Below are positions 10,020-11,781 of a stretch of 64,000 bases of DNA, piece after piece. Below the pieces are notes generated by a model, which was given only the letters and a program-made list of their open reading frames with translations, searched no databases and had not been told where the DNA came from. The stretch lies in assembly GCA_045401115.1 (NCBI GenBank), contig CP174359.1, positions 547,247-611,246 on the forward strand, in the 5' to 3' direction. How positions within the stretch are numbered: position 1 is the stretch's first letter; the number at the start of each line of letters is the position of its first letter. This stretch comes from Candidatus Phycocordibacter aenigmaticus (GTDB taxonomy: Bacteria > Patescibacteriota > Minisyncoccia > Phycocordibacterales > Phycocordibacteraceae). The position numbers were made by a program, and so were the translations under genes.

Positions 10020-10526
10020 TTACGGAATTATCCGCTCATACACAAATTGTTCACCATCTTGGTTACCAATAGTAAACGTATTTGTCGTTACCTCAAATAC
10101 TGCAAATTCTCGTTTTCCGTTTTTATTGCCATCAAAACGCATGAATACAATTGTTGCTGCGCCATCTGGTGATTCTTCTGTGTACAGGTCCCATGCGCCA
10201 CGATCATTTCCTTGTTCAAAAGTACCGTCCGAATTCAAAGTAAGGTTTGAAGCGTCACCGTTGATATGTTCCCACGCAAAACCAGAGATATGAGCGCCCA
10301 TACGATCAAGATCAACCTCTGACTGCTGTCCATCAGCGTTTTCTGTTGCAGCCTGATCGTTGCGTTGAACATTTTGTTGTGGCGTATTATTTAAATTACC
10401 CGCGGTATTTCCTTTAAAAAAATCAATATCATTCTTACTTAGAGCCTGTCCACCAAACCAAAGTCCCACGCCAAGAAAAACGCTTAAAACGCCACCAACG
10501 ATATATGTTATATACTCTTTGTTCAT
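10020..10526 (-). CDS. hypothetical membrane-anchored or secreted protein
   Basis: 168 aa; N-terminal TM (YIVGGVLSVFLGVGLWFGG) then Asn/Gln/Asp-rich extracytoplasmic region; no recognised domain. Confidence 0.5.
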   Translation of the reverse strand: MNKEYITYIVGGVLSVFLGVGLWFGGQALSKNDIDFFKGNTAGNLNNTPQQNVQRNDQAATENADGQQSEVDLDRMGAHISGFAWEHINGDASNLTLNSDGTFEQGNDRGAWDLYTEESPDGAATIVFMRFDGNKNGKREFAVFEVTTNTFTIGNQDGEQFVYERIIP

Positions 10527-10660
10527 ATGTATATATTAGTATATCAATAAAAGAGATAATATGGGAGTATATCCACCGTCTTAAATAATACGGGGACGCT
10601 TCGCTATCTCACTGCTCGACGTATTCTCGTCTGCGCACATAGAACCCACGGTTCTATGTC

Positions 10661-10736
10661 GGCCTCGCTTAACTCCTCCACGGGAAAACAACATGTTTTC
10701 CCGACCCCTTTCCGGTTCGATTCTCCACACAAAGCA
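10661..10736 (+). repeat. tRNA-Glu-derived degenerate repeat (copy A; GGCCTCG ... CCGGTTCGATTCTCCACACAAAGCA)
   Basis: Shares start GGCCTCG and end CCGG(CCG)TTCGATTCYCCACRCAAAGCA with the copy at 11097-11194; GC-rich, no credible ORF. Confidence 0.4.
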
Positions 10737-11096
10737 ATTTTTTGTGGGAATCGGCGTCAGGTTCGTAAACAAGTTTTCTTTCTGCTCTCCTTCAAAAATA
10801 CAATATTCTAATAGTATATTGTATTTTATTCACTCGTTTGAAAGTAATTCGTTTTGCCTACCTATCGGCATGAAAACTCATAACGACCTCCTGCCCGGAC
10901 TCGCCGCCCCATTGTGCATAGAACTCAGCACAATGGGGACCCGCAGCTTCGACATTGTTTTGTTACGACTGAAAGGAATTAGAAAACAAGAAGTGCCCTT
11001 GTGGTGCGTCTTTCGATTCCCCGGGGATCGTCCCGGAATAGCGGACTTTTTGCTGCACCCTGCGGGTACAGAAAAAGCTCTCGCTTTCCTGGACGC

Positions 11097-11194
11097 GGCC
11101 TCGAATGTTTTGCTCCGTGAATTCTCCGCAAAACATATACTCCGGCCGTTCGATTCCCCACGCAAAGCACGCAGGTGCTTTGCTGTAGGGTCAC
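11097..11194 (+). pseudogene. degenerate inverted copy of tRNA-Glu (tRNA pseudogene or fragment with a 25-nt hairpin insertion before the acceptor 3' strand)
   Basis: Aligns to the functional tRNA-Glu of the opposite strand: CGTGA..TTCTC..CAAAA..CGG..GTTCGATTCCCC then insertion ACGCAAAGCACGCAGGTGCTTTGCT then GTAGGGTCAC; no acceptor pairing, so it is non-functional. Confidence 0.45.
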
Positions 11195-11210
11195 AGCGAC
11201 ATGTTCTATC

Positions 11211-11240
11211 AACAAAACCGCCATTCAGGCGGTTTTGTTG
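11211..11240. terminator. bidirectional terminator hairpin (AAAACCGCC-ATTCA-GGCGGTTTT)
   Basis: 9-bp stem with flanking A/T runs immediately 3' of the minus-strand tRNA-Glu. Confidence 0.7.
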
Positions 11241-11255
11241 AGAACATCTATGTTG

Positions 11256-11327
11256 TGACCCTACGGGGAATCGAACCCCGATTTTGAGCTTGAGAAGCTC
11301 ACGTCCTAACCGTTAGACGATAGGGCC
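11256..11327 (-). tRNA. tRNA-Glu (anticodon CUC)
   Basis: Hand-folded cloverleaf: 7-bp acceptor GGCCCTA/TAGGGTC; D-stem GTCT/GGAC; anticodon stem TGAGC/GCTCA with loop TTCTCAA (U33, anticodon CTC, A37); T-arm CGGGG-TTCGATT-CCCCG; discriminator A; CCA not encoded. Confidence 0.85.
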
Positions 11328-11451
11328 GAAGAATCTGAGGAAAGTACGAAGAAAAAGAAGATGAGGACGACGGAGAAATTGACGACCTTTAGCTTAAGCT
11401 AAAGGGAGAAGATTTCTCCAAGTCCTCGCTGGTTTTTCAAAGTAATTTTCC

Positions 11452-11610
11452 AGAGTCTGAGGCCCTATCGTCGTTTTGCACGATAGGGCCAAAGAATGTT
11501 CTGCGTACACAACGCAGATTTTAAAAGAACGAGGCCCTATCGTCGTCAAAGACGATTCTAAGGCCGAGAAGTCTGAGGCCCGTATTATCGTCAAAGACAA
11601 TCCTAGAGCC
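11452..11610. repeat. cluster of palindromic/direct repeats derived from the tRNA-Glu 5' end (GGCCCTATCGTCG), each preceded by GA(R)TCTGAGG
   Basis: GGCCCTATCGTCG-TTTTGCA-CGATAGGGCC perfect palindrome at 11461-11490; further copies at 11533-11545 and a degenerate one at 11577-11592; each followed by an ATCGTC..GACGAT mini-hairpin; TCTGAGG recurs at 11334, 11454, 11571, 11633. Confidence 0.5.
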
Positions 11611-11688
11611 GTTCAAAGAATATAGCATTTTGCCTCTGAGGAATAAAGCCTCCTATATAAGACCTGCTGTATGATAGGATTTAATTAT

Positions 11689-11781
11689 ATGAAAAAGAAC
11701 ACTGCCATCGCGGTGCTCGTTACTCTTTCTCTTGGTGCCGGATTATGGGTGCATTTTTTAAATCAGAGACATACCAATTAA
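11689..11781 (+). CDS. possible 30-aa single-TM peptide (MKKNTAIAVLVTLSLGAGLWVHFLNQRHTN)
   Basis: Short ORF with a hydrophobic core; the downstream 99-aa ORF is in another frame, so this could also be the remnant of a frameshifted gene. Confidence 0.2.
   Translation: MKKNTAIAVLVTLSLGAGLWVHFLNQRHTN

Follow-up and report, generated by a model that had tools for sequence, protein, structure and literature searches.

The window, by which we mean the whole stretch of DNA that was analysed (64,000 nucleotides), comes from a Patescibacteria chromosome. As this chromosome is densely coding, the gap from 10527 to ~11690 is conspicuous; its sole gene is a tRNA-Glu(CUC) on the minus strand (11255-11327). 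A 168-aa ORF (10020-10526, minus strand) flanks the gap, and the flanking genes are ordinary chromosomal ones (RmuC, P-type ATPase, YqeY, MurF, PBP and RsmH). An earlier sequence-only reading had described the DNA beside the tRNA gene as GC-enriched and non-coding, with degenerate inverted copies of the tRNA, and had suggested the scar of repeated integration and excision, a decayed tRNA array or an unrecognised structured RNA. A repeat listing and string checks found every sequence feature that it cited in position. The enrichment is also real: GC content is 0.54-0.56 across 10900-11200, compared with 0.33-0.45 in the flanks.

The motif TTCGATTCYCC has four exact matches in the 64-kb window, where 0.07 would be expected and none of 100 shuffles reached four. 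All four lie within 10716-11275, and thus chance does not explain their clustering. GTTCGATTCYCCACRCAAAGCA is present at 10715-10736 and 11148-11169 (91% identity), GGCCTCG starts at 10661 and 11097, and a third TTCGATTCCCC lies at 11012-11022. At 11185-11195, GTAGGGTCACA repeats the tRNA 3' end (11254-11264) perfectly in inverted orientation. Between this acceptor copy and the T-loop copy is a hairpin, GCAAAGCAC-GCAG-GTGCTTTGC (11162-11183), which had been noticed before; its length is 22 nt rather than the 25 nt given then. Compared with dinucleotide shuffles, the whole region folds with a z of about -9 on both strands (about -9.5 on the plus strand).

Known RNAs and genes do not account for the gap. 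The recommended Rfam check, run over 10400-11750, reported the tRNA itself and no RNase P, tmRNA or other known RNA, whether at the gathering threshold or at E up to 10, and ARAGORN reported no further tRNA or tmRNA in the region. ARAGORN and Rfam RF00005 found no cloverleaf on either strand of 10400-11254, even with E allowed up to 10, and neither a standard nor a permuted tmRNA was detected by ARAGORN or the Rfam tmRNA models. The tmRNA, RNase P, SRP, 6S, Y RNA and T-box families, as well as GOLLD/ROOL/HEARO and the self-cleaving ribozymes, are in Rfam and gave no match. In seven relatives described below (L002, L003, L011, L013, L024, L025 and L039), Rfam 15 models likewise detected tRNA only. 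We also reject a protein-coding reading and agree that there is no credible ORF, as the 182-aa ORF at 10693-11241 on the plus strand matches nothing in Pfam, and a search of 5.8 billion proteins gave no homolog.

Relatives of the locus were reached by two routes. For the flanking 168-aa gene, the nearest relative (L001, 69% protein identity) has unrelated upstream DNA on a contig that ends after 397 nt, and the closest murF relatives (L005, L125-L128) have no tRNA-Glu after murF, hence no orthologous spacer. MurF homologs led to L002 and L003, where a hairpin comes after the tRNA-Glu(CUC) gene. Behind it, the T-loop, T-stem and acceptor 3' strand are repeated in inverted orientation, and then come ~100 nt of GC-rich DNA and a perfect direct copy of the last 16 nt of the tRNA. 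A MurF-profile scan of GTDB species representatives gave 80 loci, 48 of them with a tRNA-Glu(CTC) near murF. About a dozen of the 48 have the same downstream layout, which was seen in L002, L003, L008, L009, L012, L019, L021, L029, L040 and L073. A metagenome scan for the commonest tRNA-Glu 3' end with GGGGAATCGAA 40-70 nt downstream gave another 38 loci; in ~28 of these, tRNA nt 59-73 recur as a near-perfect direct copy a further 100-200 nt downstream. This copy was no part of the search pattern, and the MurF set is independent of that pattern.

The element lies directly 3' of tRNA-Glu (CUC, UUC) and tRNA-Ser genes of Paceibacteria-type Patescibacteria, always on the tRNA strand. An intact unit measures ~110-190 nt. 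It starts with a spacer hairpin, which is terminator-like in ~60%, followed by an inverted copy of tRNA nt ~54-73 and by AA. Next come P2, of the form GAC-GGAG-[variable hairpin]-CGA-GUC, then GG, and then P3, of the form GGUCGCGG-[variable hairpin]-CCGUGACC with conserved G.U pairs. The unit ends with a direct copy (tRNA nt 56-73) and one further base. P1, formed by the inverted copy paired with the direct copy, closes a three-way junction. In the tRNA sense, the consensus is GGGGAAUCG-AA-P2-GG-P3-CGAUUCCCCGUAGGGUCAC. In one subclass, the inverted arm is split between its acceptor and T parts by an extra hairpin, P0, which has a conserved CUGC loop and a stem with compensatory changes between loci. 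The inverted copy matches the T-arm of the tRNA in its own genome: GAGTCGAA in L009 and L040, CCGGGAATCGAA in L021, and elsewhere AGAGAGTCGAA. At tRNA-Ser(CGA/GCU) genes, the same core is found with arms copied from tRNA-Ser; 6 of 13 tRNA-Ser genes sampled had it, compared with 0 of 8 tRNA-Val genes. Members of the family are tied to tRNA 3' ends and occur widely in Paceibacteria-type Patescibacteria.

The fold of the element is conserved. RNAalifold, applied to a MAFFT alignment of 13 members, returned the three-way junction with P1, P2 and P3, and single-sequence folds gave the same junction even in subfamilies with different cores. In this MAFFT-only alignment (A4), which involved no model fitting, 93.5% of cells pair, compared with 82.9% in shuffles, and the covariation score was 0.370 compared with 0.167 in shuffles (0/500 as high; slid controls 0.04-0.09). 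A covariance model built from it (R1) found members in both locus sets. Among 36 model-aligned members, 91% of cells pair compared with 75% when shuffled, 20 of the 25 pairs have changes on both sides, and the covariation score was 0.404 compared with 0.135 (0/500; slid controls 0.04-0.08); these model-aligned sets were fitted to the structure, and the metagenome loci among them were ascertained on part of P1. Most of the covariation lies in P2 and P3, outside the metagenome selection criterion. Thus, the covariation across related genomes for which the sequence-only reading had suggested a search exceeds that of shuffles.

The fold also has a preferred strand. The minimum free energy (MFE) of the sense strand was below that of the antisense strand in 32 of 34 elements, by a mean of 9.4 kcal/mol (Wilcoxon p ~1e-6). 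The modelled helices contain 53 G.U cells compared with 19 A.C cells, and two P3 positions are G.U in most members. These results suggest that the fold matters on the tRNA strand, either as RNA or as single-stranded DNA. In the window, the tRNA strand is the minus strand. The motifs had earlier been read on the plus strand, which fold energy and the balance of G.U over A.C do not favour, and GGCCTCG, listed then as shared by the tRNA-Glu-derived repeats, is no acceptor 5' strand but the 3' strand of P2 read on the other strand (CGAGGCC).

Set against this family, the region 10585-11200 is, on sequence comparison, very probably a tandem and partly decayed array of three copies of the element, which we call units A, B and C. 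The boundaries of the units are approximate. The features are as follows.

11255-11327, minus strand: tRNA-Glu(CUC), found by ARAGORN and by the Rfam tRNA model (64.4 bits); its nt 54-73 are the source of the element arms
11185-11264, no strand assigned: long palindrome (inverted repeats) made up of the tRNA 3' end, trailer, terminator hairpin and inverted 3'-end copy
11209-11241, both strands: bidirectional terminator hairpin, inside the palindrome that reaches the tRNA 3' end
11054-11200, minus strand: unit C, closest to the tRNA (model matches, L108 homology, fold)
11185-11195, minus strand: unit C, inverted acceptor copy
11162-11183, minus strand: unit C, inserted hairpin P0, with the loop CUGC on the minus strand
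11148-11161, minus strand: unit C, inverted T-loop/T-stem copy
11097-11147, minus strand: unit C, P2, including a hairpin at 11106-11135
11054-11069, minus strand: unit C, degenerate direct copy
continuing to ~11031, minus strand: unit C, long hairpin; a truncated GATCCCC lies beyond it at 11019-11030
10744-11030, minus strand: unit B, the most degenerate (R2 match, repeats)
11011-11022, minus strand: unit B, inverted T-loop copy
10950-11009, minus strand: unit B, 60-nt conserved piece
10907-10938, minus strand: unit B, hairpin
10795-10827, no strand assigned: AT-rich, near-perfect palindrome (inverted repeat) with divergent sigma-70-like hexamers, by consensus match only
10744-10758, minus strand: unit B, remnant 3' arm CCGATTCCCAC
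10585-10743, minus strand: unit A (homology to the complete L106 element)
10715-10728, minus strand: unit A, inverted T-loop copy
10681-10703 and 10637-10659, minus strand: unit A, hairpins
10661-10667, minus strand: unit A, CGAGGCC
10589-10617, minus strand: unit A, degenerate direct copy in the tail GAGATAGCGAAGCGTCCCCGTA

Unit C belongs to the P0 subclass. Its inverted arm is intact though split by P0, its P2 is clear, and 11149-11195 is 92% identical to L108. It matches the covariance model R1 weakly at 11013-11167 on the minus strand (23.2 bits, E 0.0099) and a second model, R2, weakly at 11054-11167 (E 0.025). It folds with a z of -5.8 on the minus strand, where its MFE is -85.8 compared with -78.1 on the plus strand. 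The arrangement in the palindrome (tRNA 3' end, trailer, terminator and inverted copy) recurs in relatives.

Unit A is homologous to the complete L106 element, which ends in TCCCCGTAGGGTCA (BLAST E 6e-8 and 9e-6), and the pairing of both hairpins is kept between the two via compensatory changes. They share the tail GAGATAGCG(A/T)AGCGTCCCCGTA, the end of which is TTATTT in unit A where L106 has GGGTCA. The fold z of unit A is -2.7. Unit B is the least certain of the three. Its match to R2 is weak (10744-11027, minus strand, 18.2 bits, E 0.0075) and its fold z of only -0.8 is no better than shuffles, which leaves its boundaries uncertain; the AT-rich palindrome at 10795-10827 has apparently been inserted into it. 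The two tRNA-Glu-derived repeats and the third motif reported earlier are present, but the organisation into three units had been missed, as had the degenerate direct copy TCCCCGTA at the far end of unit A. Since none of the three units has an intact direct copy, we read the copies in the window as probable relics.

Several features of the relatives resemble the products of insertion. In 18 elements, the block of identity in the direct copy starts at tRNA nt 56-62, either within the T-loop or where the T-stem begins, and in no case 5' of C56. Crossover in the T-loop by integrases leaves such a pattern, as in the Ms6 attB (PMC1762012) and the Islander catalogue (PMC4383910). The acceptor part is perfect in the direct copy of 18 of 33 elements, compared with 2 of 33 for the inverted arm. 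As the direct copy is perfect where its partner is not, pairing alone does not explain its preservation. Arrays of two units (L025 and L120) or three (L115 and the window) were found, and in all four of these arrays units with different cores stand side by side, in L025 and the window even unrelated ones. In L008, two 187-nt copies enclose a 5.3-kb island encoding two DNA methyltransferases, a PD-(D/E)XK nuclease and an AAA ATPase, with no integrase. In L021 and L104, small nested insertions share one GA|TTCCCC junction, with duplicates of the element's 3' junction on either side. We found no integrase, reverse transcriptase or transposase beside the elements, except for two DDE-transposase-like ORFs near L108 that were identified by reading the sequence without a family search. 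As judged by reading the translations, with no family search, the genes downstream of the elements are mostly housekeeping, and an intI was not seen among them.

Other kinds of mobile or tRNA-related sequence were considered and rejected. Searches of IMG/VR viral contigs, INPHARED phages and PLSDB plasmids gave no match to the element, which argues against a viral or plasmid origin. It is not a complement of mature tRNA of the primer-binding-site (PBS) type, because the inverted copy runs on into the trailer of the gene and is not a CCA complement; CCA follows the direct copy in only 2 of 18 elements, about chance level. A guide RNA of the omega-RNA or bridge-RNA type would have its guide sequestered in P1, and no TnpB, IscB or IS110 is adjacent. 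For a retron, which would have an a1/a2 stem and a downstream RT, no RT-sized ORF is adjacent. The arms, at 18 bp, resemble the inverted repeats of a MITE, but the model finds only this locus in the 64-kb window, and copies elsewhere are tied to tRNA 3' ends, against MITE-type dispersal.

The element also appears to be a long-term resident. In syntenic pairs, the tRNA-plus-element block is more conserved than the coding flanks (83% compared with 69% between L104 and L002; 77% compared with 70% between L118 and L003), which suggests long vertical residence and constraint, not recent mobility. In L107 and L090, an inverted arm that has drifted still pairs through G.U. Of 22 intact loci, 13 have a terminator-like hairpin standing between tRNA and element, with no promoter visible there, and thus transcription of the sense strand is not assured. 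At the P0-class loci L105, L108, L097 and L111, no terminator intervenes, and in two of these, L105 and L108, a terminator-like hairpin follows the direct copy. The position and strand of the element would suit an RNA from a tRNA 3' external transcribed spacer (3'ETS); the hairpin intervenes in those 13 of 22 loci.

Based on these results, we propose a model for the element. We suggest that it may be a small non-autonomous insertion module at the tRNA T-loop, with a fold that acts on the tRNA-sense strand, probably as RNA. Units would arise by insertion or recombination at the T-loop. An incoming unit would bring a replacement tRNA 3' end and a spacer, and the old 3' end would be displaced downstream, as in tRNA-integrating islands; the recombinase would act in trans. 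The tRNA-sense fold would act, most simply, as RNA through co-transcription or read-through from the tRNA gene, and the putative RNA would end in a tRNA-like 3' end. Taken whole, a decayed array in the window together with a T-loop insertion module folded on the tRNA-sense strand is the reading that we favour, with moderate confidence. The mechanism in particular, insertion combined with an RNA, is put forward tentatively. Two of the earlier suggestions each capture part of this picture. The arms are indeed copies of the tRNA 3' end, and the arrangement in relatives resembles att-type duplication at the T-loop, in line with an integration scar; a structured RNA would account for the conserved, covarying and strand-specific fold.

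A bolder version, which we consider rather unlikely, is that the element represents a new class of tRNA-coupled module, either a conformational switch or a mobile module without genes. As a switch, the inverted arm would pair with the upstream tRNA 3' half or with the downstream copy as a decoy, and the P2/P3 junction would decide tRNA maturation. As a mobile module, the folded strand or the RNA itself would specify insertion at the T-loop of a matching tRNA gene, which would explain why the same core can have tRNA-Glu and tRNA-Ser arms.

The features that suggest residence raise the alternative that the element is a vertically inherited RNA in the tRNA 3' trailer, with no mobility, the arms being kept by selection and the arrays made by local duplication. 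P1 might then mimic the acceptor/T helix for tRNA-processing enzymes, or the inverted arm might toggle between the tRNA 3' half and the direct copy. Such an RNA would fit the constant orientation with the tRNA, the covariation and conserved G.U pairs, the conservation above that of flanking genes and the synteny across diverged genomes. The G.U pairing of the drifted arms in L107 and L090, the P0-class loci with no terminator before the element, the terminator-like hairpins after the direct copy in L105 and L108 and the lack of a nearby recombinase point the same way. However, simple duplication does not give unrelated cores within one array (L025 and the window), and the direct copy keeps a perfect acceptor part even opposite an imperfect pairing partner. 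Nor does a resident RNA explain how tRNA-Ser genes came by the same core with arms to match, and a terminator-like hairpin precedes the element at most loci. We therefore regard a purely resident RNA as unlikely. The preference for one strand could instead reflect a folded single-stranded DNA recombination site of the attC or CTX attP(+) type, in which P1 recreates the duplex target of the tRNA gene, the recombinase is encoded elsewhere and genes can be captured between units. The inverted arms do form a stem identical to the target, strand bias is strong, and the arrays, the L008 island between two units and the small inserts at one junction (L021 and L104) would all be expected of such a site. 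CTX phage reportedly integrates by single-strand exchange in the folded attP(+) stem, and by analogy the order of tRNA, spacer, inverted arm, core and direct copy would be the product of such an exchange. Against this, P2 and P3 have conserved sequence and a tandem-GA-type internal loop, unlike the centre of attC, no intI-like or other recombinase gene is adjacent, and cargo is missing from most units. A free form, at ~200 nt, would encode nothing, and the viral and plasmid collections yielded no such form. A folded-DNA site thus seems quite improbable to us.

The remaining alternatives are very improbable. Recurring T-loop and acceptor strings, together with a weak local alignment to the anticodon region, would fit the decayed array of inverted tRNA-Glu genes or pseudogenes suggested at the outset. 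We discard that suggestion because copying is limited to nt ~54-73, no cloverleaf is detectable and both ARAGORN and the Rfam tRNA model are blank at E up to 10. Moreover, intact relatives form a three-way junction of non-tRNA helices, and the same core occurs with tRNA-Ser arms. In favour of a plus-strand product, either the 182-aa ORF or an RNA that converges on the tRNA and stops at a shared terminator, are a promoter-like site at 10791-10820 on the plus strand, the bidirectional nature of the terminator at 11209-11241 and the good fold of that strand (z about -9.5). Against it, the ORF has neither Pfam match nor homolog. Across the family, the antisense fold is the less stable one in 32 of 34 elements, and the G.U pairs would turn into A.C mismatches there. 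In L003 and L029, the terminator of the upstream gene abuts the element and leaves no room for a promoter.

In sum, the element explains a class of long intergenic regions that annotation leaves blank, and provides a covariance model and a sequence signature for finding them. The family is apparently undescribed, being absent from the databases and literature that we searched; literature searches found no description of the element. Patescibacteria genomes are very small, yet many of them retain a non-coding stretch of 150-700 nt behind their tRNA-Glu and tRNA-Ser genes, and this DNA is more conserved than the neighbouring genes. We found no other element with a conserved three-way junction closed by a stem that is rebuilt from the upstream tRNA. 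If it acts as RNA, the element would represent a new family of structured RNAs linked to tRNAs, in a phylum that is uncultivated. Should it be a recombination module, it would illustrate how gene capture at tRNA genes could do without a resident integrase.

Among known systems, E. coli 3'ETS-leuZ is a short, unstructured sponge RNA from a tRNA 3' external transcribed spacer. The element resembles it in lying in the tRNA 3' trailer on the same strand, from which tRNA-processing nucleases could release it. It differs in being structured, with tRNA-derived arms, and in often having a terminator-like hairpin between it and the tRNA. Like the tRNA-like domain of tmRNA, the Y RNA YrlA and mascRNA, it re-uses acceptor and T-arm sequence in a larger molecule. 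Unlike these, it has neither a T-arm hairpin nor a D-arm analogue, and its tRNA-derived strand pairs with an exact complement; their Rfam models do not match it.

Integron attC sites and the CTX-phage attP(+) are imperfect inverted repeats that fold one strand, and attC sites occur in arrays. The element is similar in that its inverted repeats fold one strand around a variable or branched centre, its units form arrays and its stem mimics a duplex recombination site. It differs from attC in having no integron integrase, attI, regular cassette ORFs or R''/R' motifs (RYYYAAC / GTTRRRY). It differs from both in that its arms are copies of tRNA genes and its centre has conserved motifs, and its recombination is putative.

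The islands and prophages that tyrosine integrases place in tRNA genes form a further comparison set, represented by the Islander catalogue (PMC4383910), the T-loop attB of Ms6 (PMC1762012) and the tandem islands at ssrA in Dehalococcoides (PMC3146451). As in these islands, the tRNA is regenerated in relatives of the window, with the displaced 3' fragment downstream as a direct repeat, although the window itself has only degenerate copies of that repeat (11054-11069 and 10589-10617). The block of identity begins in the T-loop and runs to the tRNA 3' end, units accumulate in tandem, and in L008 a 5.3-kb defence island lies between copies. Unlike the islands, the units are only ~110-190 nt long, with no integrase or other gene. 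They add an inverted copy of the tRNA 3' end and a covarying three-way-junction core, and they are more conserved than the neighbouring genes.

A widely conserved linkage joins tRNA-Glu(CTC) to the cell-wall gene cluster: in 48 of the 80 Patescibacteria loci taken from GTDB representatives (L007-L086), the tRNA gene lies no more than about 2 kb from murF. Between the array and yqeY, gene content varies among relatives: locus L002 has genes for an FAD oxidoreductase and EamA there, and L104 has none. In the window, the minus-strand gene directly downstream of the array (10020-10526) encodes a 168-aa protein, predicted to be membrane-bound or secreted, for which a single homolog (69% identity) was found among 5.8 billion proteins.

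The tRNA-Glu + element blocks of two relatives (L096 2208-2521 and L103 3974-4286) share 88.6% identity but lie in inverted orientation with respect to the neighbouring genes, whose identity is 71-78%. The tRNA and element have been relocated or flipped as a single block. In L008 (7770-13237), two 187-nt copies of the element flank a 5.3-kb island whose genes specify two methyltransferases (one Dam-type, one N6/N4), a PD-(D/E)XK nuclease and an AAA_15/AAA_21 ATPase; the island lacks an integrase. In L021 (7630-8070), two 30-nt duplicates of the element 3' end bracket a 420-nt insertion. A small ORF inside this insertion is zinc-ribbon-like, with two pairs of CxxC motifs (...CPACGYDW...CPECG...).

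The P2-P3 core is also found without tRNA-derived arms, at five loci of relatives:

L018, 194-314
L011, 7928-7990
L024, 11055-11152
L013, 11360-11462
L039, 9099-9181

The arms of the L018 copy derive from another sequence, CCACAAAG, and are arranged as in the tRNA-linked elements: a direct copy and a CUGC-loop hairpin are followed by an inverted copy, the core and a second direct copy. The sequence upstream of this element was not identified by Rfam.

On the 5' side of tRNA-Glu, window positions 11330-11620 contain hairpins composed of tRNA 5'-end sequence and the matching complement, which include:

11461 and 11533, GGCCCTATCGT
11480, ACGATAGGGCC

The tRNA-Glu 5' end is repeated together with its flank (ACGATAGGGCC[G/A]AAGAAT at 11317 and 11480), and relatives L012, L052, L104, L107 (at tRNA-Ser), L110 and L121 likewise carry copies of the tRNA 5' end upstream.

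Two features were seen inside degenerate unit B of the array:

10795-10827, AT-rich near-perfect palindrome, AAAATACAATATTCTA/TAGTATATTGTATTTT
10950-11009, 60 nt forming two hairpins

The palindrome bears divergent sigma-70-like hexamers; it may have been inserted later or may represent an operator-like site. The 60-nt stretch is 84% identical to the opposite strand of an intergenic segment of L096 (370-430), 1.9 kb away from the tRNA-Glu of that locus, and it may represent a separate small conserved motif.

Finally, many elements (L013, L091, L093, L107 and L123) have the heptamer GCGAAGC in their cores, and it is also present at window positions 10600-10610. This heptamer forms an unusually stable DNA mini-hairpin, and its presence in the cores is a weak hint on the question of whether the element acts as RNA or as single-stranded DNA.
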